Of a DNA stretch of 64,000 nt, positions 4,471 to 55,436 are shown in pieces (within the stretch, counting starts at the first letter, position 1; every line of letters begins with the position of its first letter). Source of the stretch: a phage. The translations under genes and the position numbers were made by a program. A model generated the notes under the pieces. The model ran no database searches, was not told the origin of the DNA, and saw only the letters and a program-made list of their open reading frames with translations. The stretch is taken from sequence record PX393109.1, one strand, 5' to 3'.

Positions 4471-4560
4471 TTTTATTTTTCAAATAATGAAAAATAAAAC
4501 GATTTATGAGCCGTCTTTAAGCCCGTTCTTTTGGGTGGCGGGGCGTTCCCGCTGCGGCTC
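4471..4560 (+). promoter_or_regulatory. class B conserved intergenic element (TTTTTCAAATAA...AAAGCCCGTTCTTTTGGGTGGGGCG + GC-rich segment)
   Basis: One of 6 near-identical elements; upstream of small gene 4581..4823 with leader TAATTTGGGATAAAATC-ATG. Confidence 0.55.
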
Positions 4561-5086: not shown

Positions 5087-5110
5087 GCCCTCCAAAGGCT
5101 GTTAAACTGT
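5075..5110 (+). promoter_or_regulatory. class A conserved promoter-like motif (CCGCTCTTT-N~9-AAAGGCTGTTAA-RNTGT), copy 1
   Basis: Motif recurs 16 times, always + strand and 25-90 nt upstream of a start codon. Confidence 0.6.
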
Positions 5111-8382: not shown

Positions 8383-8410
8383 TAGGGTGACTTCGGTCAC
8401 CCTAATTTTT
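8383..8410 (+). terminator. rho-independent terminator (TAGGGTGAC-TTCG-GTCACCCTA + T-run)
   Basis: Perfect 9-bp stem, UUCG loop, aattttt. Confidence 0.7.
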
Positions 8411-10235: not shown

Positions 10236-11618
10236 ATGTCAGATTCAAAGGTAGTTACCTGGGGGACGGTGCTAGTAACGGTGGGTATCATACTCGCCAT
10301 TATGTTAGCTCCCACCCAGTTTGGTGCTGTAATGGACTGGAGTAAGTCTGTATTCATATCTCAGTATGGATTCATATTTACCTGGTCTTCGCTGATCTTC
10401 CTAGCGTTCCTGGCATTCTTTGTATTCAGCAAGCATGGTAACATTAAGCTGGGTAAAGGTGCTCCGAAATATAATCGCTTTACCTATTACTCCATGATGT
10501 TTAGTACCGGTATGGGTGTATCCATGATTTATTATGGTGTACTCGAACCTATGTACCATCAGCAGGAGGGTATGTCCGAACGTCAGAATATGGTAACTAC
10601 CTTCTTTGACTGGGGACTTAACGCATGGGCAGTTTATGCAGTCGTAGGGGTGGCATTCGGGTACTTACTGCATGTACGTGGTGAAGACCGTCCGCTTAAT
10701 CAGTTATTCAAGTCCCGAGCTCTGAATAACCTTAATACGATAAGCTTACTCTTCTCTACCATCATAGGCTTAACCCTGTCGTTCGTCTACGCAGTAGGCC
10801 CGATCAGTTCCGGATTTAAAGAGTTCCTGGGAGTGGATGTTGGTCCTTACACCATTATCGCGCTCCTGACTCTGGGTACTGTACTTAGTGCCGTAACTGG
10901 TGTCGATCGTGGGGTTAAGTGGTTATCCAGATATAATGTAATCGTAGCTCTATCTATTATGGCATTCGTTGCTGTAAGTGGTACATTCTTCGAATACCTC
11001 TGGAAGACCATCACCTATTCTGGTAGCTATCTGCTCCAGATTATTCCTATGTCAGTAAACATCGGCAGTACTGCTGAAGAGAAGCAATGGCTGGCTAGCT
11101 GGCCTTATGCTTACTATGCAGCCTGGGTAGGTTGGGCATTATTCGTCGGAGCGTTTGTGGCACGTATCTCTTACGGCCGTACTATTCGCGAACTGATCCT
11201 CGGATGTGTACTGTTCCCTACCATCATCAGTAACGTCTGGTTTACCGTATTCGGTGTAGCTGGTCTACAACATGGTGCTCAGGATATCTTCCAGCTTCTG
11301 GCTAATTTCCCAGGCGGATGGATATTCTCGGTAATTACCCTCGTGTCTGTGATCCTGTTCTTTATTACAGGTCATGACTCAGCAGGTATTACGGTAGAGT
11401 CCATGACCGCTCCTAGAACTCGTGTATTCTGGATTGTAAGCATGGGTGTAGTTGCTGCTGCACTTAACTGGGCAGGTGGCGACGTAGTAACTGTAACGAA
11501 GACTCTGGTAGCTGTATCGGCTGTTCCGGTACTGATTGGGGTATTGTGTATTCTATTCGGGTTCCTCAAGATCTTTGTACCTAAAGTATTCTTGGCTAAG
11601 GAAACTCCGCCTGTTTGA
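10236..11618 (+). CDS. BCCT-family transporter (betaine/carnitine/choline transporter-like)
   Basis: Multi-TM protein with Trp-rich BCCT signature region AWVGWALFVGAFVARISYGRTIRELILG, as I recall it from BetT/CaiT/OpuD. Confidence 0.7.
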   Translation: MSDSKVVTWGTVLVTVGIILAIMLAPTQFGAVMDWSKSVFISQYGFIFTWSSLIFLAFLAFFVFSKHGNIKLGKGAPKYNRFTYYSMMFSTGMGVSMIYYGVLEPMYHQQEGMSERQNMVTTFFDWGLNAWAVYAVVGVAFGYLLHVRGEDRPLNQLFKSRALNNLNTISLLFSTIIGLTLSFVYAVGPISSGFKEFLGVDVGPYTIIALLTLGTVLSAVTGVDRGVKWLSRYNVIVALSIMAFVAVSGTFFEYLWKTITYSGSYLLQIIPMSVNIGSTAEEKQWLASWPYAYYAAWVGWALFVGAFVARISYGRTIRELILGCVLFPTIISNVWFTVFGVAGLQHGAQDIFQLLANFPGGWIFSVITLVSVILFFITGHDSAGITVESMTAPRTRVFWIVSMGVVAAALNWAGGDVVTVTKTLVAVSAVPVLIGVLCILFGFLKIFVPKVFLAKETPPV

Positions 11619-11642
11619 TGACCTAAAAGGCTGTTAAGGTGT
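11607..11642 (+). promoter_or_regulatory. class A conserved promoter-like motif, copy 4
   Basis: CCGCCTGTTTGATGACCTAAAAGGCTGTTAAGGTGT overlapping 3' end of transporter gene. Confidence 0.55.
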
Positions 11643-11653
11643 CAGAGGCGTAC

Positions 11654-11686
11654 GGGGTTAGGTCTCTACGGCCTAACCCCATTTTT
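11654..11686 (+). terminator. hairpin terminator (GGGGTTAGG...CCTAACCCC + ATTTTTG)
   Basis: 9-bp stem and T-run located between class A copy 4 and the next gene; shares CCCCATTTTTGTGTAG tail with terminator at 4437. Confidence 0.6.
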
Positions 11687-11704: not shown

Positions 11705-12316
11705 ATGAAGTCACGACTGATTATCAGCCCACATCACGATGATGAGATTCTGGGTTGCGGAGGTATTATGAGCAAATTCCGCGATGACCAATTCTTCATC
11801 CTCGAAGTAACTGCTCCGGACGAGACCCGTCGTGGCGAAGCCGAAGCAGCATTCGGTGTCTATCCGAATATCAAAGAAGTACATTGCCTGGAGCGTAACG
11901 ATGCCTCCACAGGCGATGGTATGACTCAGAAGGATATTCCGCAATTGGCTAAGGATATTGCGGACTATGTTGCTAAAATCAGGCCGGATGTAGTCTATAT
12001 TCCGTTCAGTAGCCTACACCAGGACCATCAACTAGTTAATCATGCTGCTCGTGTAGCTCTCCGAGCGTATAACTGGCTTATCCTGGAATATGAGTATGCC
12101 GAGTCCCTGACCCAGTTCGGTCAGATGGAACCTAATTACTTCGAGCGTCTGAATAAGGACGATATTGAGTGTAAGTGCCAGGCTATGGGACGATTCGACT
12201 CCCAGATTAAGTCAGACCGAGATACCCAGAGTATCTTAGCCCTAGCCACCTTACGTGGATATTCCGCCCAGTGGCCGTACGCCGAAGGGTTTCGCTTAGT
12301 TCGTCAAATTGGATAA
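11705..12316 (+). CDS. PIG-L/LmbE-family deacetylase (N-acetyl-sugar deacetylase-like)
   Basis: N-terminal ISPHHDDEILGCGG and HQDH motifs characteristic of the zinc-dependent LmbE/PIG-L fold. Confidence 0.65.
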   Translation: MKSRLIISPHHDDEILGCGGIMSKFRDDQFFILEVTAPDETRRGEAEAAFGVYPNIKEVHCLERNDASTGDGMTQKDIPQLAKDIADYVAKIRPDVVYIPFSSLHQDHQLVNHAARVALRAYNWLILEYEYAESLTQFGQMEPNYFERLNKDDIECKCQAMGRFDSQIKSDRDTQSILALATLRGYSAQWPYAEGFRLVRQIG

Positions 12317-13357: not shown

Positions 13358-13382
13358 TGAGCTAAAAGGCTGTTACATTGTG
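13346..13382 (+). promoter_or_regulatory. class A conserved promoter-like motif, copy 5 (core embedded in hairpin GGCTGT..ACAGCC)
   Basis: TCGCTTCTTTGATGAGCTAAAAGGCTGTTACATTGTG. Confidence 0.55.
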
Positions 13383-13404
13383 ACAGCCTACGGAGAAATT
13401 AAAT

Positions 13405-14484
13405 ATGAAAATTGCAGTAACTAACTTTTCGCCATGCAGCGATAAATCCATCATCGCCAGTAACACTCTGGCATCCTGGTTAGCCTACGGACTTCAGGCG
13501 GACTTGCTGGATGATACTCCTAAGTTTGTTAAGGCTATGGAAGATGGCACCAAATATGACGTGATCATCGCCGTCAATGGTGTTCCTACCTTCTGTAAGT
13601 TCCGCGATGAGATGTATAAATTCTGGGTAGACCAGGCGGACCTCGGAGCTAAGTTTTACTGGATTGGTCAAGATTATTCATCACGTATGCGTATCCAGGG
13701 TCCGCAGTGGCGACACATCACAGCAGCTACGACATTTAAAGTAGTAGCAGCATTCGAGCGTACTTCCTGGGGTAATCAGTACTCCCCTAGCGAAGAGAAC
13801 TATCACCACATTAACTGGAACCGTCTTACCTACGTTCCTGGTCGTAAGCCTCGCTACGGCTCATCTGATAAACCAGACAATAGCCTGCTGTATTACGGTG
13901 CTGCTCGTGAAGGTCGCTTCCATAAGTTCACTCAGTACTTCTCCCAGCAGGATGGTCTGGAACTGTTTATGTCGGTGCCTAGCTACAAAGCTCAGATGTC
14001 TATCGCTAAACATACTGGTGGTCTTGCTGGATTTGACGGCTACGAGCAGGAAAACTGGGAAGAGCTGGATCCTAAAGAACGTAAGTGGCTGGGGCCTGCT
14101 GCTCCTATTAACTGGCTGCCTAAGTTTAAGCTGTCAGAGATGCTGGATGAAGTGGCTAAATACGCAGCGGTACTGCTTATTGAAGACTGGAACTCTAGTA
14201 ACTCGTTCTATACCAGCCCACCTAACCGTTATTATGAATACCTGAGCTCTGGTACTCTGATGTTGGTGGATAAAGATGCTGCCGGAACAATAATCCGGAG
14301 CGGCGTCCCCGAAGAGCTGCTGGCTCCTCTGATCGTCTCCAGTAATGCGGAGATTGCAGAGAAACTGAAAGATCGTGATGCTCTGCTGAAACATCAGTAT
14401 GAGAATCTGTATCTGCGCAAGGATTACGCACAAGAACTTCAGGATGAAGTAATCGACTACTTTACCAAAGAAGGTATTCTTTAA
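13405..14484 (+). CDS. DNA beta-glucosyltransferase-like protein (T4 BGT-like, GT-B fold)
   Basis: Several colinear blocks resemble T4 beta-glucosyltransferase as I recall it (MKIAVTNFS vs MKIAIINMG; YDVIIAVNG; YYGAAREGRFHK vs YGGSFRSGQRE; RYYEYLSSGTLMLVD vs RVWETMASDAVMLID). Recall-based, needs alignment. Confidence 0.5.
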   Translation: MKIAVTNFSPCSDKSIIASNTLASWLAYGLQADLLDDTPKFVKAMEDGTKYDVIIAVNGVPTFCKFRDEMYKFWVDQADLGAKFYWIGQDYSSRMRIQGPQWRHITAATTFKVVAAFERTSWGNQYSPSEENYHHINWNRLTYVPGRKPRYGSSDKPDNSLLYYGAAREGRFHKFTQYFSQQDGLELFMSVPSYKAQMSIAKHTGGLAGFDGYEQENWEELDPKERKWLGPAAPINWLPKFKLSEMLDEVAKYAAVLLIEDWNSSNSFYTSPPNRYYEYLSSGTLMLVDKDAAGTIIRSGVPEELLAPLIVSSNAEIAEKLKDRDALLKHQYENLYLRKDYAQELQDEVIDYFTKEGIL

Positions 14485-15455
14485 TGTCAACACCGTTAGG
14501 TCTGCATTACGAAGGACTCCTTGGGATGATAAATCCTGAGGAGTTACGGGAGTATGTGGAGTATAACCGTGAACGTACAGAGGTTTATTATAAGAAGGAG
14601 GTGCTTAAGCTGCCTCCTCCGTGGACGGAACATAAGTGGATTAGTAAGTTCAAATTCACTAACGTGTTCCGTAAGCACGATCGTGAAACAGTGTGGGCTA
14701 TTAAGAACATTCTGGAGAACGATTCTTTAAGCTGGGAGAGTAAAGCACTTAATGTAGTACTCTTCCAGATGATAAACCGTGGTGATTCATATATGGATCG
14801 CTTCCGCAGAGTCCTTCCTCTTTATGAGATGAGCTATGACGACATACATAACATGGGTCGCGAAGAGCTACGTCGTTATGAGGATGGTCCTCCGTTCACC
14901 GCTCCACAGCAATCAAATGCCTACTTCCTTAGCACAGCAGTTAAGATGGCTAATGAAGTATGTCCAGAGGATATTAAGTACAGTGTAGCTGCCAGAGCCT
15001 ATCTGGTGAAGACCTACAGTGATCCTATCTTATGGGCATGGAAGTCTCCGTTCGCTACCGAGGCTATCGAGCATCTGTTACAGGTATCTGGATTAGGTCC
15101 GTTCATGGCATATCAATGCTGGGCAACTATGTCCTACTCTAAAGAGACTGCGTATACAGATAATGACGCTATCGTATGTGGACCTGGGACTCAGGATGGG
15201 GTATGGTACATGATTAATGACCAGAATCCTCCCTGTGGTTATCAGGTATTCGTGGAATGGTGGTATCAGAACATCAAAGAGATATGTGCACATTTCGGGT
15301 ATTCATGGGAACCGGAGAAATGGTTCCACTTCATGCCAGAGGATGAGCGATTCTATACTCGCCAGATGTTCACCAACTCATTCTGCGAATTCTCGAAACT
15401 ACATAAACTGAATCACGAGATCCGTATGAGACCTCGCTGGTATAAGTTTAGCTAG
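14484..15455 (+). CDS. hypothetical protein (323 aa), member of putative modification cluster
   Basis: ORF translationally coupled (TAATG) to upstream gene; no confident domain. Confidence 0.5.
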   Translation: MSTPLGLHYEGLLGMINPEELREYVEYNRERTEVYYKKEVLKLPPPWTEHKWISKFKFTNVFRKHDRETVWAIKNILENDSLSWESKALNVVLFQMINRGDSYMDRFRRVLPLYEMSYDDIHNMGREELRRYEDGPPFTAPQQSNAYFLSTAVKMANEVCPEDIKYSVAARAYLVKTYSDPILWAWKSPFATEAIEHLLQVSGLGPFMAYQCWATMSYSKETAYTDNDAIVCGPGTQDGVWYMINDQNPPCGYQVFVEWWYQNIKEICAHFGYSWEPEKWFHFMPEDERFYTRQMFTNSFCEFSKLHKLNHEIRMRPRWYKFS

Positions 15456-15544: not shown

Positions 15545-16267
15545 ATGAGAGACTATAGTATCCCAGGCTACAGTGTAATTATGTCTGGTGCGCAGGGTAC
15601 CGGTAAATCTACCCTGGCTAAAGGTTGGGAAGAATCAACCGAATGTACCTTCCGTGCAGTACAGACTCGTGACCATCTTCCTCTGGGAGTAACATCCCAT
15701 ATGGATATTCTGCGCTTAGCTGTAGAAGATCCTATGGAAGCGGTAGAGTTCCAGCTGCGTCTTATTCGTCAGCGAACTCAGATGTTCAAGGATGCCTACA
15801 ATCGTGGCGAGTTGATCGTCAGTGATCGTGCGGTATTCGATTCGTACGTTTACTTCCTGCTGCATAACAGTATGTTTGCCAGCCAGGAAGCTCGTGATGA
15901 GGCATTACGTCTCAGTAACGAGTCTATTGATTATTATAACATGACTCTGTTCTTCAATACGAAGGATAAGAGTATTGAGGACAATAACTTCCGTGTTGTT
16001 GATCCTGAATACTCTGTAGCAGTCAGTTCTACTCTCCTTAAGGTAACTATGCGTGCCTACGAGGAGCGATTCGGTGCTGCGTTGTGTAATTCTGTAACTC
16101 TGAATCATCCGGTGTATCCTGGATCAATCACAGCTCGTTTTACTAATACTGGTAAAGGTATTATGATCCTGAACGAGCCATCTGGTATGATCCCTCAGGA
16201 GGCCCGTCTGGAGTTACTGTCCTCTGCAGTTAAGTCTATTGATTCAGTGCGTAAGGACTCTAAATGA
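15545..16267 (+). CDS. P-loop nucleotide/deoxynucleotide kinase (dNMP kinase-like)
   Basis: Walker A MSGAQGTGKST near N-terminus, DR..FDSYVY lid-like region; size and layout resemble dNMP/dNK kinases. Start at ATG 15545 (track start is TTG). Confidence 0.55.
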   Translation: MRDYSIPGYSVIMSGAQGTGKSTLAKGWEESTECTFRAVQTRDHLPLGVTSHMDILRLAVEDPMEAVEFQLRLIRQRTQMFKDAYNRGELIVSDRAVFDSYVYFLLHNSMFASQEARDEALRLSNESIDYYNMTLFFNTKDKSIEDNNFRVVDPEYSVAVSSTLLKVTMRAYEERFGAALCNSVTLNHPVYPGSITARFTNTGKGIMILNEPSGMIPQEARLELLSSAVKSIDSVRKDSK

Positions 16268-17337
16268 TCTCGGTAATTCGCGGTAACAGTAATACTGAAA
16301 TCCTGGTTAACAGCATCAATACTATGGATAAGGCTGGTGAGTTGCAGAAGTCCAGAACTTCTGTTAACTCTTCGGCGGTAGTATCCATCGGTCATGCTGT
16401 AGTTGAGTTAAGTAATCCGATTAATCGTTGGATGGCTCATCCAGAACGTAAAGACAATATCCTCGGAATTATGGGGGAAGTATTGTGGGTACTGTCTGGT
16501 GGCTATGCAATCGATAACTGGATGTCGATTATGGTTCCTCGCGCTAAGATGTTTAGCGATGATATGGTTACCTGGCGTGGTGCTTACGGTGAGCGTCTGT
16601 ATAACTACGATCAACTCCAGACTGTAACAGACCGCCTCCGTTCTGACCTGGGTAACCGTAAGTGCGTGGCTACTATTCACGATCCCAGCCGTGATTCTGA
16701 TGTAGGTCTGGTAAACAGCATTGGCAGCATCAATACCGCAGATATGATCTGCAACATTGCTCTATCGTTTAAGTACCGTAATGGTGGTCTGGACTGCACG
16801 GTATTCAACCGTAGTAATGATCTAATCTGGGGATTGACTAACGTTAATCTGGTGGAGTTCACGATCATCCAGGAAATCATCGCAACTATGCTCAAAGTAG
16901 ATATGGGCAACTATGTGGTGATGACGGATGATCTCCACTGGTATCCGGAAGTGTCGAACATCAAGAAGCAGGTAAGTAATATCCGAGCTTATGTTGACGA
17001 CATTAATGAAGCTCCGGTAACTACGATTGATCTCGGATCACTTAATTCCTGGTATAAGATCCGTACCTACTTCCAGCATTACATCGCTACTCTTGAAGAT
17101 GCTGCTTCTCGTTATAATAGCGATCACAGTATTCTAGAATACGTAATGGAAGATGTTGGTCGAGAGTTCCAACCAGGATCAACTCTGGATGTGATGATGT
17201 GGTTAGCAGGCGCTCATTATCTATGTAAGACTACTGGAGCTCACATGTCTATCCAGTGCGAGCATCTGGTTAATTCACCATTCGTGAAATGGGTCGCGAA
17301 CCGCCTCGGGGATAAGTCTCCGTTTATTCTGGAATAA
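16264..17337 (+). CDS. thymidylate synthase / deoxypyrimidylate hydroxymethylase superfamily enzyme (ThyA-gp42 fold)
   Basis: Colinear ThyA-family motifs: EVLWVLSGG, WRGAYGERLY, DQLQ..RKCVATIHDP, catalytic-Cys region MICNIAL, NRSNDLIWGL, DDLHWY. The RSND and C-x-N features resemble T4 dCMP hydroxymethylase more than canonical ThyA. Confidence 0.7.
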   Translation: MISVIRGNSNTEILVNSINTMDKAGELQKSRTSVNSSAVVSIGHAVVELSNPINRWMAHPERKDNILGIMGEVLWVLSGGYAIDNWMSIMVPRAKMFSDDMVTWRGAYGERLYNYDQLQTVTDRLRSDLGNRKCVATIHDPSRDSDVGLVNSIGSINTADMICNIALSFKYRNGGLDCTVFNRSNDLIWGLTNVNLVEFTIIQEIIATMLKVDMGNYVVMTDDLHWYPEVSNIKKQVSNIRAYVDDINEAPVTTIDLGSLNSWYKIRTYFQHYIATLEDAASRYNSDHSILEYVMEDVGREFQPGSTLDVMMWLAGAHYLCKTTGAHMSIQCEHLVNSPFVKWVANRLGDKSPFILE

Positions 17338-17373
17338 CCGCTCTTTTTAGGGCTCGAAAGGCTGTTAAGGTGT
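17338..17373 (+). promoter_or_regulatory. class A conserved promoter-like motif, copy 7
   Basis: CCGCTCTTTTTAGGGCTCGAAAGGCTGTTAAGGTGT. Confidence 0.6.
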
Positions 17374-17420
17374 GGGAGGCAACTTCCATACCTTTATTTT
17401 TGTAACTTAGGAGAAATTAC

Positions 17421-24558: not shown

Positions 24559-24632
24559 TTGGGCGAAAAGGGTAGCTCCCCTGATGGTGCCGCTTCACCA
24601 TCTAGCCCATTTTATTCTAAGCGGAGAATATT

Positions 24633-27242: not shown

Positions 27243-27326
27243 AAAATAAGTTTCAAAAAGACGCTTCCTGGCGAAGTCTGAGACGTCCCACAGCCCGTTA
27301 ACTTGGGGCGGGGCGTTTCCCCGCCG
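27243..27326 (+). promoter_or_regulatory. class B conserved intergenic element, copy 3 (variant core ACAGCCCGTTAACTTGGGGCGGGGCG + hairpin GGCGGGG/CCCCGCC)
   Basis: Core and perfect 7-bp GC hairpin 27307-27325. Confidence 0.5.
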
Positions 27327-28501: not shown

Positions 28502-30016
28502 ATGATCGTATCAAAGTCCTTGAATGAATTACACCGTCTTATTGATATGAAAGAAGCAACCTACACCACTCCGGTGCGTTTTTACTTCTCTGATGGTCCT
28601 AAAGAAACTACTATCGGTCGACTGTTTATTTGGGAAATCAGCGGCTATCTTCCAGAGAAAGAAATAGATAAGAAGGAATCTGCGAAGATCGTCTCTTACA
28701 TCAATAATAACTATACTCCGGAAGTGGCTGGTCGCCGACTGCATAAGTTGCAGCAGTTCGGATTTCATAAGGCTACTCAGTCTGGTCTGAGTTTATGTTA
28801 CGACGACACTAAGTTTGACTTCGGTATAGACTTTCCAGCCATGACTCAGGAACTCGGTAAGATGGGGTACGAGGATCGTCTGGCTGCTGCGGATAAAGTC
28901 ATCAACGAATGTACCGATCGCTGGTTTAAGGAAGTAGACCGTCATAATCCGCTGTATGCGATGGGTGTATCTGGTGCTCGTGTATCTCCTCCCCAGGTTC
29001 GTTCGATGGTGGTGGCTAAAGGCCTTCTGGTGGGCATGACTGGCAAGATCATGCCGATGCCGATCATGGAGAACTTAAGCTCTGGATTATCTCCCATCAA
29101 CTACTTCAATACCTGCGGACCTGCTCGTAAGGGTCTGGCTGGTAACTTCTTCCTGGTACCTGCGACTGGTTGGTTTGCTCGCCAGCTGGTTAACTGTTCC
29201 AGAGAGTTGTCTATTGTAGAAGAAGACTGCGGAACTAAGGAAGTAATCACCTTACCTAAGAAATCAGCACTGTATCGATTCACTAGCGACCGAATAATGG
29301 TTACTAAAGAGAATGTGGATCAGCTGGCGGATGAAGAAGGTAATGTGAAAGTCCTTAGCCCTATCACCTGTGAATCAACTAAGGGTGGGGTATGTCAGCA
29401 TTGCTGTGGTATGGATCCCGCTAAGCCTGCTAACTTCTTCCCTATTAACTTCGGTATTGGAACGGCGTCGGCGCAACATATCTCCGAACCATCTACTCAG
29501 GCTGGTCTCCGTGGTAAGCATACATCTGGTTCGACTACGCTTAAGGAATTCGGTACTTCGGTAAGTAACTCCTTAGCCGATATCCTGAAGACGGTAGGTG
29601 GCCGAGGAACTGCGGTGGCTCAGGTATCTGAGTCTAAGTATAAGTGCATCACGGATCTTGCCCACGAAACTGGATCAGCAATTAAAGGTGCAGAGTTAGC
29701 TGCGATTCAGCTTAAGCACATCTTCGACGACATCGGTATCGGTATCGCATCGATTCACCATGAGATCATTGCTCGCGGTTGTACTGATCTGGTTAAGATG
29801 AATAATGGACGAATCGGTGTTCGCAGCATGGGAGATAAGGGTGAGGTACTGGCGATTAAAGCCGATGCCATCCCTACGAAGCATCCCAGCTGGTTGAAGT
29901 CTATTGGCCATGGTAACGTTAAACGTAGACTTACTGATGCAGTGCTTAATGGTGATGTTAGCTTCGGAACCCGTTCCGAGATGATCATTGCTGGGTTAAA
30001 TCTGAATAACAAATAA
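28502..30016 (+). CDS. RNA polymerase beta-prime-like subunit, C-terminal half (bridge helix/trigger loop region)
   Basis: NTCGPARKGLAGNFFLVPATGWFARQLV resembles beta-prime region F (STHGARKGLADTALKTA..GYLTRRLV); ASAQHISEPSTQAGLRGKH resembles trigger-loop AAQSIGEPGTQLTMRTFH. Confidence 0.75.
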   Translation: MIVSKSLNELHRLIDMKEATYTTPVRFYFSDGPKETTIGRLFIWEISGYLPEKEIDKKESAKIVSYINNNYTPEVAGRRLHKLQQFGFHKATQSGLSLCYDDTKFDFGIDFPAMTQELGKMGYEDRLAAADKVINECTDRWFKEVDRHNPLYAMGVSGARVSPPQVRSMVVAKGLLVGMTGKIMPMPIMENLSSGLSPINYFNTCGPARKGLAGNFFLVPATGWFARQLVNCSRELSIVEEDCGTKEVITLPKKSALYRFTSDRIMVTKENVDQLADEEGNVKVLSPITCESTKGGVCQHCCGMDPAKPANFFPINFGIGTASAQHISEPSTQAGLRGKHTSGSTTLKEFGTSVSNSLADILKTVGGRGTAVAQVSESKYKCITDLAHETGSAIKGAELAAIQLKHIFDDIGIGIASIHHEIIARGCTDLVKMNNGRIGVRSMGDKGEVLAIKADAIPTKHPSWLKSIGHGNVKRRLTDAVLNGDVSFGTRSEMIIAGLNLNNK

Positions 30017-31595: not shown

Positions 31596-33164
31596 ATGAA
31601 ATTAAAGTTATCTATTGCAACTGATGATGTAATCCGTGCCGAGTCCAGTGGTGAAGTAACCAGTATGGGCATGTATAACCTTAAGTTCCATGATCCTAAG
31701 CCATTCACTGGTGGGTTATTCTGCCAGCGTATCTTCGGACCTCTGGTAACTGGTAAGTGTGAGTGTGGTAACCAGCTGGTTATGGGAGCGCCTCCGTGTA
31801 ATGTGTGCGGTATGGTAGCTATGCATCGTGAATCTCGTCGCCGCCGTATGGGTCACATCGAGACGATCGTTCCTTATGTGAATCCATTAGCTATCAAACG
31901 TATGGCTGCGCTATTCGGATTCCCAGAGCGAGAATTCGGTCAGTTCCTTATCGGTAAATATCGCTTCGTAGTTCAGGAAGCTGGTCTGGCAGCTAAGATG
32001 GTTGGTGATGATCGGGAGCGGGTTCGTGAGGCTAATGCTGCTCTTCCGGAATATGAAGATCGTGAGAAGTATGCGATGTTCTACTCTAACACTATCCCAG
32101 TTCAGGATAGCACGAAGCGCCTCGCAGTGGTAATGATTAAGATCCGCCGTATGTCAGAGCACGAGTCATCAGAGTTAGGTCTTCTGAGTCTTATCCAGGC
32201 ATTGGTAGCTAATCATGCTGATATGAAAGCCTATATCGAAGAGTGCGAAGATCCTACAGTAATCAATAGTGGTTATACAGAGTTCAGCGACTTCTATAAC
32301 ACTACGGTGCTGGTGAATCCTCCTAGCTATCGTGATGTTGGCATCAGCAATGGGGTAATGTCGTATCATCCGACTAACTTACTCTACCTGCGAATCCTGC
32401 GCCATGCTATCCGTATCAGAAGTATTCGCGATACTGCCGAGGCCAGCGAAGCGTTGTTATCTCTGATTCCTCGTGAATCTATTGTAATGCAGAAGATGGT
32501 TAACGGACTAATCCTGGAGGGCACTAAGGACTATCGAGGTAACTTAATTAAGCCGATGATCAATAATCTTAAAGGTAAGGGTGGTCGAATCCGTGGTAAC
32601 CTGTTAGGTAAGCGCGTTGATTACTCCGGTCGTTCTGTAGTTACTTCGGCTCCGCATCTTCCGCTGGATACTCTTGGTGTACCGTTCAAGATGATGTACG
32701 AATTACTTCAGCCAGACATCCTGGGTGAGCTGGAGAACTTATATGGTGGCCCGACTAACGAAGGGTACAACATGTACGACATCAGCAATAAAGTCCAGCG
32801 TATGTACAAGAATAAGTCCCGAGTAGCTCTGGAAGTATGCTGGAGACTGTGTGAGAATGCCACGGTGTTCATGAACCGTGCACCATCCCTACACCGTTAC
32901 TCAGTATGGGGATTTAAGGTCAGACCTCACATGGGTAAGGAGATTCAGGTTCCTCCGATGGCTATGGGTGGTCAGAACATGGACGTGGATGGTGATACCG
33001 CAGCAATTCACCGTGTACTGACTGATCGTGCTTGCTGGGAAGTACGTAGCCTGATGATGGTTAACCAGAACATCAACAGCTCTATTGACTTCGATAGTCC
33101 GGTCGTGAAGCCGTCCCACGAAATGGTGGTAGGTCTGTTCCAGGCAACTACGGTGGATATGTAA
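31596..33164 (+). CDS. RNA polymerase beta-prime-like subunit, N-terminal half (zinc ribbon to catalytic loop)
   Basis: GGLFCQRIFGP...CECG...CNVCG...RRRRMGHIE resembles the beta-prime N-terminal zinc-binding region; NMDVDGDTAAIH matches catalytic NADFDGDQMAVH near C-terminus. Confidence 0.75.
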   Translation: MKLKLSIATDDVIRAESSGEVTSMGMYNLKFHDPKPFTGGLFCQRIFGPLVTGKCECGNQLVMGAPPCNVCGMVAMHRESRRRRMGHIETIVPYVNPLAIKRMAALFGFPEREFGQFLIGKYRFVVQEAGLAAKMVGDDRERVREANAALPEYEDREKYAMFYSNTIPVQDSTKRLAVVMIKIRRMSEHESSELGLLSLIQALVANHADMKAYIEECEDPTVINSGYTEFSDFYNTTVLVNPPSYRDVGISNGVMSYHPTNLLYLRILRHAIRIRSIRDTAEASEALLSLIPRESIVMQKMVNGLILEGTKDYRGNLIKPMINNLKGKGGRIRGNLLGKRVDYSGRSVVTSAPHLPLDTLGVPFKMMYELLQPDILGELENLYGGPTNEGYNMYDISNKVQRMYKNKSRVALEVCWRLCENATVFMNRAPSLHRYSVWGFKVRPHMGKEIQVPPMAMGGQNMDVDGDTAAIHRVLTDRACWEVRSLMMVNQNINSSIDFDSPVVKPSHEMVVGLFQATTVDM

Positions 33165-33694
33165 TGAAGAAACATGCTATCGGTGAGAAAGATGTTGGTA
33201 GAGTTATCCACTTCGAGGGTACTCCCGAACGCGGTCTGGACCCTGCGGGCTATATAACAATCTTCTCAGATGCATCGTACTGTCATAAGAGTAAGGCTGC
33301 TGGTTTCGGAGGATGGATTCGTCTTCCTGGTGAGCAGCGAGCTCATATAACTCGCGGAGGATTTACTGCTGTAGATAATAACTGGGCAGAGCTAGAAGGG
33401 ATCATGAAGACCCTATGGTTTGCCATGACTAAGACAGCATTCGATGGTGTTAGGGTAGTCGTCCAATGCGATTGCGAATGGGCATTAAAGGAATTCATAG
33501 ATAAGCATATGGAAATGCTTCGCGATCTTAACCCTAAGTCCATTAAGGTTAAGCATGTCAAAGGTCATCAGAAGTTCAATAATCCTCGCTACAAAGTAAA
33601 TAATCTCTGTGATGAGATAGCTAAGCAGGAAATGGTTAAGTATAGAAATAAACTTAAAGGATACACAGATGCTGGGATTTTTAGTGGTGCATAA
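33164..33694 (+). CDS. rnhA: ribonuclease H (type 1)
   Basis: ITIFSDASY..AGFGGWI, NNWAELEG, VVVQCDCEWA, VKGHQKFNNPRYKVNNLCDEIAKQ align with RNase HI catalytic D-E-D-D/H motifs. Confidence 0.7.
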   Translation: MKKHAIGEKDVGRVIHFEGTPERGLDPAGYITIFSDASYCHKSKAAGFGGWIRLPGEQRAHITRGGFTAVDNNWAELEGIMKTLWFAMTKTAFDGVRVVVQCDCEWALKEFIDKHMEMLRDLNPKSIKVKHVKGHQKFNNPRYKVNNLCDEIAKQEMVKYRNKLKGYTDAGIFSGA

Positions 33695-33968
33695 GGAGCA
33701 CGGTGCTCTCTGTGGAGTAAACGAGTTTTACACCTCATGGACCGGTCTCGGCTGTAATCCAGATACCACCGCAGCATTCTTCGAGACTTATGAAGAGGCT
33801 GGATTAATATCTGAACTGTTGCAAGATCCAAACGTATCAGTATTCGGACCAATCTATCAAGACTCTGAAGTAACTGATAAGATTCCTGTAAGTATTGTGG
33901 AATCGTTGGGTATCAAATGCTCCTACTATAGGCAGGAGCCCGAAAATAAACTACCATGGCCATGGTGA
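33669..33968 (+). CDS. hypothetical protein (99 aa)
   Basis: ORF overlapping RNase H 3' end; weak evidence. Confidence 0.3.
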   Translation: MLGFLVVHKEHGALCGVNEFYTSWTGLGCNPDTTAAFFETYEEAGLISELLQDPNVSVFGPIYQDSEVTDKIPVSIVESLGIKCSYYRQEPENKLPWPW

Positions 33969-33973
33969 TAAAA

Positions 33974-34480
33974 ATGAATAAAGCTGAAGTAGTGTTAGGA
34001 CTTGTACAGTCCGTGGACGAGGGTTACTCCTCGGTAAAATTCTGTCCAGACTCTGATGCCTGGATAGATAATCTTAAGCAGGTTATCTCTGAAGTAGCTG
34101 ATTATGATAAGCTTAACTTCGATACCGGTCACGATAACCACTGCACCCTTATGTATGCTCCGGGGACTGGTGCTCCGGATGAGGGAACTATTGCTGATCT
34201 GGTAGGTAGCAAACTTCATCTGAAGAATCCTCGCTATGAGATCTTCGGTGAGAATGCTAACTACCTGGTGCTGGCGTTCGATAGCGATCTGCTACAATCG
34301 TTTAACTATCGACTCCGTGCATCTGGGGAGGTACCGTCTGAGATCAGTGCGGAATACTCTCCTCACATAACTCTGGCCAAGGACGTAGAGAATCTGGATA
34401 TCTCTACTCTACCAGAATTACCGACCGATCTGTATTTAAACATCACTAGCGTAACTGCTGAGGAAATCAAGAATGACTAA
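33974..34480 (+). CDS. hypothetical protein (168 aa)
   Basis: ATG after GGTGATAAAA; ORF to 34480. Confidence 0.45.
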   Translation: MNKAEVVLGLVQSVDEGYSSVKFCPDSDAWIDNLKQVISEVADYDKLNFDTGHDNHCTLMYAPGTGAPDEGTIADLVGSKLHLKNPRYEIFGENANYLVLAFDSDLLQSFNYRLRASGEVPSEISAEYSPHITLAKDVENLDISTLPELPTDLYLNITSVTAEEIKND

Positions 34481-34817
34481 GAAGACTACTGGTAACAAAA
34501 TTAACCTGGACATGTTTCATCTGATGTATGCTAAGCAACTGGGTATGGAACCTGCTGCTTACGCTGCTAAGGTTAATTCAGACCAGGAGTTCCGTCACCA
34601 GGTAGAGACTGCGTTCTCTGGGTATGCAGTAGCTGTAAATGCTCTTCGCCTCCAGATCATCGGTGGCTCTAAGCTGTCTATTGAAGAGATAGCTCCTGGT
34701 GTGGCTAAGATCCGTCTGGGAGTGGGTGAGTGGGAGTTAGACAATACTCCTAAGAATACAGAAGTAGCTCTGGATGATTTCCTGATCTCCAGTAACTTTC
34801 TGACTGCCGCCGTTTAA
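34473..34817 (+). CDS. hypothetical protein (114 aa)
   Basis: Overlapping start (ATGACTAA); ORF to 34817. Confidence 0.45.
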   Translation: MTKKTTGNKINLDMFHLMYAKQLGMEPAAYAAKVNSDQEFRHQVETAFSGYAVAVNALRLQIIGGSKLSIEEIAPGVAKIRLGVGEWELDNTPKNTEVALDDFLISSNFLTAAV

Positions 34818-34842
34818 TACGGTCCAAAGGCTGTTAACTTGG
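34808..34842 (+). promoter_or_regulatory. class A conserved promoter-like motif, copy 10 (core forms 5' arm of terminator hairpin)
   Basis: CCGCCGTTTAATACGGTCCAAAGGCTGTTAACTTG. Confidence 0.55.
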
Positions 34843-34876
34843 GGAACGCCCTCGGTTAACAGCCTATTTTTATTTA
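34830..34876 (+). terminator. hairpin terminator whose 5' arm is the class A core (GGCTGTTAAC...GTTAACAGCC + T-run)
   Basis: 10-bp perfect inverted repeat followed by tatttttattt. Confidence 0.6.
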
Positions 34877-34892
34877 CTCGTTAAGGTACGAT

Positions 34893-35198
34893 ATGAAGTC
34901 CACTAAACCAGTCGAATTCTTTGACTTACTGACCACCATGGCCATAGCTGGTTACACATCCGATGATCCCAACATGGTGGTTAAGAATATTGCTCGTCGG
35001 AATAAGAAGTTCTTCCCATCTGCTGATCGTAAGATGCTGGATGTGGTAATTAACCATAAACACCCAGCAGCAACTGTAATTAAGGCGGTATCTAATCTGC
35101 TAGGCACTGAAGTGGACGCTAAGTACATAGCTACTGTAATCCACACTACCGGAAGATTTTATCATAAGGTGGTAGCTAATGATTCTGTATCATCGTAG
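34893..35198 (+). CDS. hypothetical protein (101 aa)
   Basis: ATG after AAGGTACGAT; ORF. Confidence 0.45.
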   Translation: MKSTKPVEFFDLLTTMAIAGYTSDDPNMVVKNIARRNKKFFPSADRKMLDVVINHKHPAATVIKAVSNLLGTEVDAKYIATVIHTTGRFYHKVVANDSVSS

Positions 35199-35529
35199 TA
35201 AGCATAAATGGGATTGGCCTAGTTATGAGCTCATCCAGACCTTATCGCAGGGATGGGGTCCGGAGTTAGGCCTATATACCTGTAATGTAGATAATCTCTA
35301 CAATAGCCATGGGACCTATCTTTACGAGATAACTCTGAAGAAGTTCATTCGTCCCAGAGTGATTACAGTTACCGAGCTTAAGCATGTGCGAGATCTTGCC
35401 GCTATGAGAGAAGTCTTTATGGAGCAAGGATGGCAGGTGCTTAAGGTAGTGGAAGATAATGGGGAGTCTGTAATCTTCGTTATCATGGATATGGACTGTA
35501 TTGATACCATCGTTCGACACGAAAAATAA
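35179..35529 (+). CDS. hypothetical protein (116 aa)
   Basis: Overlapping start; ORF to 35529. Confidence 0.4.
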   Translation: MILYHRSKHKWDWPSYELIQTLSQGWGPELGLYTCNVDNLYNSHGTYLYEITLKKFIRPRVITVTELKHVRDLAAMREVFMEQGWQVLKVVEDNGESVIFVIMDMDCIDTIVRHEK

Positions 35530-55196: not shown

Positions 55197-55436
55197 ATGG
55201 AACAACCTATCCAAGCAGTAACTAATGCGGTTGGGAGCATGCAGATCGTGGGTTATGATACCTATGAGCAAGTAGCTCAATCAGTTAAACTCGATCCTCG
55301 CAAGAAGCGTCGTGGTCATCGTCGAGCAGCTAAGAGTCTGCTTAGTAATGGTGGGGTCTTCAATAACTACTCTGCACCAGGAACTACATTCTGGTGGGTC
55401 GCACAATGGCATCTTAAGAAGGCACGTAATGGCTGA
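55197..55436 (+). CDS. hypothetical protein (79 aa)
   Basis: ATG after TGGGAGTAATT. Confidence 0.45.
   Translation: MEQPIQAVTNAVGSMQIVGYDTYEQVAQSVKLDPRKKRRGHRRAAKSLLSNGGVFNNYSAPGTTFWWVAQWHLKKARNG

Follow-up and report, generated by a model that had tools for sequence, protein, structure and literature searches.

Terminators that abut or overlap promoters are known in bacteria and phages. In the fold-back inhibition of IS10 and IS50, the insertion element carries its promoter in or past the 5′ arm of an inverted repeat, and only read-through RNA from outside forms the hairpin, which hides the ribosome-binding site and blocks translation. In phage N4, each early promoter carries a short hairpin that is needed by the single-subunit virion polymerase. 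Here we describe a hairpin followed by a T-run at positions 34828–34875 of a 64,000-nucleotide stretch of phage DNA (sequence record PX393109.1; the window, in what follows, is this whole stretch), the 5′ arm of which coincides with the core of a recurrent promoter-like motif, class A. We favour the reading, with a probability that we put at about 0.55, that this is the terminator of the upstream unit, that its 5′ stem arm is a class A promoter core, and that RNA initiated at this promoter escapes it. The region is 98% identical to that of Escherichia phage vB_EcoM_IME392 (116 kb; hereafter IME392) and 93% identical to that of EP_H11 (111 kb).

Phage phiKZ, which has its own multisubunit polymerases, has many intrinsic terminators consisting of a hairpin and a U-rich tract, as reported in the portions considered here of an Oxford Nanopore Technologies (ONT)-cappable-seq study (PMC10914365). 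The present locus resembles these in having a stem-loop and a U-rich tail with TTAT in a short intergenic region, and some of the phiKZ terminators are next to or downstream of promoters and attenuating; however, the phiKZ terminators have a G+C-rich stem of their own, and sharing of a stem with a promoter core is not described in those portions of the study (PMC10914365). The present phage also differs from phiKZ in that its genome is ~110–116 kb, not of jumbo size. In the coupled promoter-terminators of bacteria (bioRxiv 10.64898/2026.08.19.745784) the initiation and termination signals of adjoining units are likewise physically coupled, but these involve host sigma-dependent promoters and not a phage-specific motif, as far as the title and the start of the abstract of that report go. 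In the literature, no promoter, terminator or transcript map was found for this phage, IME392, EP_H11 or their group, and the motif strings described below were not found in any relevant context. What is new is the occurrence of such an overlap in an unstudied phage group, with an undescribed promoter-like motif.

The element reads AAAGGCTGTTAAC (34826–34838), then GTTAACAGCCT (34855–34865), and then ATTTTTATTT (34866–34875). A repeat search identifies the arms 34828–34838 (AGGCTGTTAAC) and 34855–34865 as 11 nucleotides (nt) long, 100% complementary and 16 nt apart, and RNA folding gives an outer stem of 12 pairs, 34828–34839 with 34854–34865, in which the final pair is G-U, together with an inner stem GGGG/CCCU formed by 34841–34844 and 34849–34852. 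The fold of 34826–34875 has a free energy of −25.6 kcal/mol with z = −5.85, and none of 200 shuffled sequences is equally stable. A first-pass annotation had described here a class A core acting as a 5′ arm that pairs with a downstream arm followed by a T-run; the perfect 11-nt arms bear this out, and its coordinates are accurate to 1 nt. The stem starts 11 nt past the stop codon of the upstream gene (34815–34817) and ends 28 nt ahead of an ATG at 34893, and both this ATG and the Shine-Dalgarno sequence at 34883–34886 are outside the hairpin. On the minus strand, the hairpin has just TTT after it.

A stable stem-loop, a U-rich tract and a sense-strand position after a coding region are thus all present in the sequence and its fold, and 34828–34875 is a candidate intrinsic terminator at which the phage or the host polymerase would be expected to stop. 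Its anatomy is that of the other terminators of the genome, which supports the proposal of the first-pass annotation that upstream read-through transcripts should terminate here. In our own scan for terminator-like sites, defined as compact hairpins followed by at least four T, the early arm of the window has nine sense-strand sites, of which the one at 34828 is the strongest; all nine are intergenic, and they share a style of tail in which the stem is followed by A or TA and then TTTTT. The same scan returned five antisense candidates, three of them inside coding sequence and two in a region of the second motif, class B, described below. A simple terminator scan did not list the 34828 site, its loop limit being 3–8 nt and the outer arms being 16 nt apart. 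The terminator at 8383–8404 has undergone a compensatory swap of a G-C for an A-T pair, with GGGTGAC/GTCACCC in the window and EP_H11 and GGGTGGC/GCCACCC in IME392, and this indicates that hairpins of the canonical terminator kind are under structural selection in this genome. At the 34828 site itself the inner loop of IME392 is AGCG, and in EP_H11 a 1-nt deletion and a C-to-A change close the internal loop. An additional small hairpin at 34809–34823 (CCGUUUAAUACGG) was dropped, as it is not kept in EP_H11.

A stem of this size could instead be cut by RNase III, or block 3′ exonucleases, and in this way set and stabilise the 3′ end of the upstream mRNA, with the T-run secondary. It is indeed long for a terminator, with 12 + 4 base pairs (bp) that become 17 bp of continuous stem in EP_H11, and the related hairpins discussed below are mostly devoid of T-runs. 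However, RNase III sites usually extend over about two helical turns, and the stem, with 16 bp and an internal loop here and 17 bp in EP_H11, appears shorter than this. The tail ATTTTTATTT matches those of the other terminators, and there is no Rfam family match, either in the whole window at the gathering score or in 34600–35100 at E ≤ 1. We regard a processing or stability hairpin as quite unlikely.

The coordinates of these features, and of neighbouring and comparable ones, are collected in Table 1.

Table 1. Features of the 34828 site, the units on either side of it, and other class A sites with hairpins (window coordinates).
Feature	Coordinates	Strand	Description
Upstream block (U) of class A, here CCGCCGTTTA	34807–34816	+	Includes part of the stop TAA of the upstream gene (34815–34817)
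Class A core (D block), AAAGGCTGTTAACTTGG	34826–34842	+	Probable −10-like element of a phage-specific promoter
5′ arm of outer stem, AGGCTGTTAACT	34828–34839	+	Inside the putative promoter core
Inner stem-loop, GGGG-AACG-CCCU	34841–34852	+	Sole part varying among relatives
3′ arm of outer stem ("anti-core"), GGTTAACAGCCT	34854–34865	+	Identical in IME392 and EP_H11
U-rich tail, ATTTTTATTT	34866–34875	+	As RNA AUUUUUAUUU; 8 U among 10 bases; follows the stem directly
Upstream unit	from class B motif at ~30761	+	β′ N-terminal half (31596–33164), RNase H (33164–33694), Acb1-like protein (33956–34480), 114-amino-acid protein
Last gene of upstream unit	34473–34817	+	114 amino acids; from the open reading frame list; no family match in Pfam or PHROGs
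Two small genes that the class A copy would drive	34893–35529	+	101 and 116 amino acids; from the open reading frame list
Second overlapping module	17357–17401	+	Class A core 17357–17373; hairpin 17367–17394 (AAGGTGTGGGAGG...CCATACCTT), −17.6 kcal/mol, then TATTTTT
Class A core with hairpin 13367–13389	13365–13389	+	CTGT pairs with downstream ACAGCC; 10–11 bp, about −16 kcal/mol; no T-run
Class A core (11626–11642) with complete terminator	11626–11686	+	Hairpin 11654–11680, −19.4 kcal/mol; TTTTT 11682–11686

IME392 and EP_H11 are myoviruses in which one long arm contains the replication, nucleotide-metabolism and small genes, and an opposed structural arm makes up the rest of the genome; the replication or early arm corresponds to the plus strand of the window up to ~60.4 kb. 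Class A is distributed accordingly, with 16 copies in the window, 25 in IME392 and 24 in EP_H11, none of them antisense; every copy belongs to the early arm, and the structural arm has no copies. Alignment of the 16 window copies gives a bipartite motif, CCGCTCTTTT-N9-AAAGGCTGTTAA-NN-TGT, composed of an upstream block (U) and a core (D). The string AAAGGCTGTTA occurs in 16 exact copies in the window, all on the plus strand, against 1.07 expected, and the sole minus-strand match, with one mismatch, is the 3′ arm of the 34828 hairpin itself. With numbering from the initial A of the core, IME392 and EP_H11 orthologues show no substitutions in the CTCTTT of U or in core positions 0 to +9, and positions +10, +11 and +14 to +16 carry 0–1 substitutions; the spacer is variable, and divergence jumps past +16. 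A copy is also found at the head of the gene arm, in the divergent region, and this one has no gene preceding it on its strand. In the record of IME392 this arm head (55.3–61.2 kb, outside the window) has eight class A copies within ~6 kb, two of them 58 nt apart, and few annotated genes, and the opposite strand of the divergent region contains AAAAGGGTGTTTTTGTG, a possible third core variant heading the structural arm.

The same two-block design recurs in the Acinetobacter phages Ab1-TPeters (L003) and vB_AbaM_3098 (L038), where CCTGTTTCTTAA or CTCAAAATTGA is followed by a spacer of ~11 nt and a related core, AAA-N-CCTGTTAA-NN-TGT; their RNA polymerase β′ sequences, 49% identical, are the nearest others to that of the window, and are followed in similarity by those of Ralstonia phage RP13, Rhizobium phages, YerA41 and the PBS1/AR9 group. 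These two phages, IME392 and EP_H11 were the only usable relatives, further ones having been sought for covariation. A search of IMG/VR with the protein encoded upstream of the 34828 site returned nothing, and the bipartite motif pattern had no matches there; in metagenome contigs it matched 27 loci, each a single match with no multi-copy contig, which we take as chance.

There is a precedent in jumbo phages that have related polymerases, where conserved motifs ahead of early operons, centred near −10, were shown to be promoters (PMC7598289). Class A shares with these early motifs and with the AR9 late promoter a highly conserved block of ~10–12 nt centred near −10, recognised upstream of operons by sequence analysis, and the company of split β/β′ polymerases (PMC7598289). 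It differs from them in being bipartite, with a −35-like block, and in sequence: the sense-strand CTGTTAA-NN-TGT does not match the AR9 late motif AACA-N6-T(A/G), the AT-rich early motifs or the phiKZ consensus. Because of the strand bias, the intergenic position, the copy at the arm head, the conserved blocks, the retention of the motif together with the polymerase and the jumbo-phage precedent, we consider it quite probable that a phage-directed polymerase uses class A as a promoter.

Several other identities for the motif were considered and rejected. It is not a host sigma-70 promoter, as TGTTAA is without the A2 and T6 of TATAAT and the spacer would be 19 nt, and a consensus scan shows no sigma-70-like site in 34133–35513. 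A sigma-54 promoter (GG-N10-GC) would start at about +27, which is past the Shine-Dalgarno sequence at +18 of some copies. The T7 class II terminator (ATCTGTT) has in common with it only the five bases CTGTT, and neither the annotation of the related records nor the proteins scanned include a single-subunit polymerase. The U block CGCTCTTT (e.g. 17338–17347) resembles the boxA of lambda nut and rrn antitermination sites. In lambda-type nut sites, boxA is followed by a boxB hairpin at a fixed distance, with about one such site per operon; class A has no conserved hairpin between U and D, is present in 16–25 copies per genome, and has U blocks in the Acinetobacter phages that are not boxA-like, and we judge the likeness coincidental.

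The position of class A relative to the genes also invites a different interpretation, in which it is a 3′-end or RNA signal (for pausing or termination, processing or protein binding) and the hairpin and T-run are its companion terminator. In most copies the upstream gene has its stop codon in the gap separating U and D or immediately ahead of U, the next ATG is anywhere from +26 to ~+95, and several copies are followed by a hairpin and T-run. However, the arm-head copy has no gene upstream of it, and the bipartite structure with fixed spacing and a variable spacer is like that of DNA-recognition sites. Moreover, terminator-like structures are found at only 4 or 5 of the 16 copies, and canonical terminators without the motif are present at 768, 4437, 43160 and 55150, so that we think a 3′-end role unlikely. 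We note that the stop codon is inside the motif, past the T-run of the U block, at 5094, 9285, 11626, 13365, 15501, 17357, 20941, 34826, 40583 and 56879, and in differing frames (e.g. CCG CTC TTT TAG and C CGC TCT TTT TAG), such that genes run into the promoter-like element.

Where transcription would start decides what becomes of the hairpin. At the class A site at 97487 of EP_H11 a Shine-Dalgarno sequence, GGAGG, occupies +18 to +22 and the annotated coding sequence starts at 97518 (+31), and in many class A units a hairpin begins 0–3 nt past the TG. From this Shine-Dalgarno position, the end of the conserved footprint at +16 and the placement of the 5′ hairpins we infer a start window of +12 to +18, corresponding to 34839–34844 at the target. 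A start near +17 would place the U and D blocks at approximately −36 to −28 and −14 to −6. With a start at 34839–34844, at most the last nucleotide of the 5′ arm would be transcribed, in line with the earlier proposal that transcripts from the core would lack that arm. The predicted difference is also obtained on folding with and without the arm: −25.6 kcal/mol with it, and without it nothing beyond the 4-bp inner stem. RNA beginning at 34840 or 34842 has z of about +1 against shuffled sequences, and forms the GGGG/CCCU mini-hairpin only, with no stem beside the U-tract. The full hairpin would thus be confined to read-through RNA, provided that transcription starts at +12 to +18. As in IS10 and IS50, the origin of a transcript would decide its fate; the difference is that the hairpin at 34828 does not include the Shine-Dalgarno sequence and is predicted to cause termination.

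In the mechanism that we propose, the unit running from the class B motif at ~30.76 kb would end at the 34828–34875 terminator. A polymerase arriving from upstream would copy both arms, the 12 + 4 bp hairpin would form right before the U-tract, and the RNA would be released. The class A core in the 5′ arm would restart transcription for 34893–35529 at ~34839–34844, past the arm, and the RNA initiated there, with only the small GGGG/CCCU hairpin, no stem at the U-tract and an open Shine-Dalgarno sequence and ATG, would read on.

If transcription started upstream of the 5′ arm or elsewhere, the promoter's own transcripts would contain the full hairpin, and the element would be a leader attenuator that throttles 34893–35529 from every source. 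Complete terminators are in fact present in predicted class A leaders. The one at 11654–11680 is inside the predicted 5′ leader of the gene at 11705, ~11 nt downstream of the predicted start, and as a putative leader attenuator it would act on its promoter's own transcripts; others are at ~24560–24616 and, in Ab1-TPeters, at 43266. Furthermore, 42 mapped termination sites of phages, phiKZ among them, are in 5′ untranslated regions just downstream of promoters (PMC10914365). However, two observations, a Shine-Dalgarno sequence at +18 of other class A copies and a conserved footprint ending at +16, put the start past the 5′ arm, and with a start upstream of core position +2 the conserved core would follow the start, an arrangement without parallel in promoter geometry; attenuation at 34828 therefore appears quite improbable. 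Of the leader structures themselves, that at ~24560–24608 is a branched hairpin with TTTTATT; the IME392 hairpin at this site (24542) differs, but the CCCATTTATTT tail is kept at the same place. That of Ab1-TPeters is a hairpin with a T-run at 43266–43288, and both are possible attenuators.

The first-pass annotation had pointed to two further class A sites. At 11607–11686, a class A copy followed by a separate terminator is present as described, but the position of this terminator inside the promoter's own leader argues against insulation. The supposed weaker version at 13365 has a good hairpin, which ends 3 nt ahead of a Shine-Dalgarno sequence (GGAG) and takes the form of a 9-bp stem with a different loop in IME392, but without a T-run it is not a terminator. 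Other overlaps are closer in kind to that at 34828. The 17367–17394 hairpin shares sequence with the class A copy at 17357, at the AA-NN-TGT end of that copy, and is identical in IME392 and EP_H11; the first 4–7 nt of its 5′ arm, which pair beside the U-tract, lie upstream of the predicted start. In Ab1-TPeters (48546) and vB_AbaM_3098 (14577), the core is in the loop of a terminator whose 5′ arm is upstream of the predicted start. Since the proteins flanking these two modules are not similar to those at the window site, the modules are independent of it, and orthology with it was rejected. The proposed role in compact insulation between adjacent transcription units is plausible in the light of these three additional overlaps. 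Termination accounts for only part of the wider hairpin pattern, considered next.

Pairing between cores and sequences just downstream of them is more common than expected. When each core is compared with the next 70 nt in IME392, Ab1-TPeters and vB_AbaM_3098, six perfect stems of 8 nt or more are obtained, where random windows predict 0.38, and sense-strand ACAGCC is present within 70 nt downstream of the core in 3 of 11 cases in IME392, against 0.165 expected (P = 5e-4). The core/anti-core hairpins belong to non-orthologous class A-type sites: one at ~55336 in the IME392 record (L005, minus strand), two in Ab1-TPeters (36945 and 65069) and three in vB_AbaM_3098 (11433, 38927 and 44109). In several of them the 3′ arms touch or enclose a Shine-Dalgarno sequence or ATG; at 55336 of IME392, 10-nt arms enclose both, and this site is closer to IS10 than the 34828 site is.

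These numbers bear on two further explanations of the 34828 repeat. It might have no function, as a by-product of quasi-palindrome template switching or of chance that is tolerated as harmless, and since it is carried by three close genomes only, its conservation is uninformative in this respect. Nevertheless, an 11-nt perfect repeat with a T-run exactly between two genes, the six stems against 0.38 expected and the enrichment of ACAGCC make an absence of function highly improbable. Alternatively, the repeat could act at the level of DNA, as the palindrome of a regulator, as a second, inverted site for a promoter-recognition subunit, or as an extruded promoter hairpin like those of N4. Like N4, the phage would combine an inverted repeat with a promoter that its own polymerase uses; the differences are that a hairpin is present at only 3 of the 16 class A copies (34826, 13365 and, in part, 17357), and that the stem at 34828 is long and followed by a U-tract. 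The 3′ arm does recreate the core on the minus strand with one mismatch, anti-cores recur near cores in three lineages, and relatives of this polymerase can read single-stranded promoter DNA (AR9; PMC7598289). Against this, the arm spacing of 0 to 38 nt among the six strong cases is unfit for a dimeric binding site, and 13 of the 16 class A copies are without the repeat, which is thus not needed for promoter function. The minus-strand copy has no U block and no TG, and there is no minus-strand gene nearby; a functional antisense promoter on this arm was rejected on the same grounds. Overall, a DNA-level element seems very unlikely.

Several points weigh against the terminator-promoter reading that we prefer. 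First, both the promoter status of class A and its start site are deduced by comparison. Secondly, the conservation of the 3′ arm is not significant, with 0 changes in 12 nt among three genomes that are 93–98% identical, and as the motif dictates the sequence of the 5′ arm, there is no room for covariation in the outer stem. Thirdly, T-runs are missing from four of the six strong core/anti-core hairpins, and the hairpin rather than termination may be the property that is selected. Finally, the terminators at 11654–11680, at ~24560–24616 and at 43266 of Ab1-TPeters are wholly downstream of class A cores, such that promoter-initiated transcripts are not consistently protected, and the overlap at 34828 could be mere compaction.

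The second conserved intergenic motif, class B, is found at 4520, 26936, 27292, 30761, 35572 and 39071, extending from about −70 to +30 around each. It consists of A/T-only palindromes (e.g. AAAAATAAAACGTTTTATTTTT) and T(T/A)TGAAC, followed by AAAGCCCGTTCTTTTGGGTGGGGCGG and a G+C-rich hairpin, and the frame AAAG-NNN-GTT-NNNN-TG is common to both classes. The 34826 site is a hybrid in this respect, with a class A core and then the class B-like GTTAACTTGGGG, as is also the case at 27297. Class B copies are upstream of the polymerase β′ genes and of blocks of small genes, and class A copies are upstream of replication and nucleotide-metabolism genes. Because the two classes head different gene sets, we speculate that the 34828 site may separate two temporal classes. 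At the class B copy at 39059–39083 the hairpin GAACGGGTTTAAAGCCCGTTC (−11.7 kcal/mol) is followed by TTTT and has the class B core as its 3′ arm, and the T-run adjoins the GGG that is the probable beginning of the transcripts. Signals resembling a terminator and a promoter are fused here too.

The RNA polymerase β′ subunit of the phage is split, as seen from Pfam and PHROGs matches, into an N-terminal half (31596–33164; Rpb1 domains 1–2, E 3e-23) and a C-terminal half (28502–30016; domains 3–5). The gene for the C-terminal half comes first, upstream of that for the N-terminal half, and the two are in separate units, each headed by class B; the GenBank labels for the two halves are 'beta prime' and 'beta'. 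Pfam recognised no β-like (Rpb2) gene among the proteins scanned. The Acb1-like product of 33956–34480 matches the anti-CBASS Acb1 family at 28.5 bits, barely over the Pfam cut-off of 27, and also a PHROG annotated as RNA ligase (E 2.6e-10). EP_H11 has neither of the two small genes of 34893–35529, yet retains the hairpin and the promoter core: in this phage (L002, 7880–8040) ~620 bp corresponding to 34905–35520 of the window are gone, and a remnant of five codons (ATGAAGTTTACCACCTAG) is directly followed by the class B region. A 460-amino-acid protein encoded at 10236–11618 is a BCCT-family/BetT choline transporter according to the annotation of the relatives, an unusual cargo in a lytic phage.

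A 5-hydroxymethyldeoxyuridine (5-hmdU) DNA kinase domain is encoded at 14484–15455 (E 4.8e-35), a thymidylate-synthase-like gene (annotated as such in IME392 and EP_H11) and a glycosyltransferase-like gene are present at 16264–17337 and 45009–45977, and IME392 has been named among the phages with a YerA41-type DNA polymerase (PMC12686479). These features together suggest that the DNA of this phage probably carries hypermodified thymidine, in which case a polymerase reading the T-rich promoter-like motifs would meet modified bases. AR9 also has a non-canonical base in its DNA, namely uracil (PMC7598289), and with thymidine probably hypermodified, promoter recognition here would parallel the uracil-dependent recognition in AR9.

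On its own, a terminator that overlaps a promoter is unsurprising in a dense phage genome, and the arrangement at 34828 is tidy rather than unprecedented. If confirmed, it would be a clean natural terminator that acts only on upstream transcripts, as the downstream promoter removes its 5′ arm, and a compact insulation part of use for the timing of phage gene expression and for synthetic biology. The wider anti-core pattern is the more original lead, and we advance it tentatively, as doubtful: this little-studied phage group, with its own multisubunit RNA polymerase, probably T-hypermodified DNA and genomes of ~110 kb, may systematically set the reverse complement of a promoter core from a few to ~40 nt downstream of it, such that read-through RNA is marked by a hairpin that is out of reach for RNA initiated at the promoter. 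RNA marked in this manner would be terminated where there is a T-run (34828; 11433 of vB_AbaM_3098), masked from translation where the arms enclose or touch the Shine-Dalgarno sequence (55336 of IME392; 36945 and 65069 of Ab1-TPeters) or processed. If true, this would amount to a genome-wide sorting of transcripts by their origin, in which temporal gene classes are kept apart without additional intergenic space. For the group as a whole, the two promoter-like motif classes, the predicted start site and the candidate terminators provide a first handle on its transcription signals.

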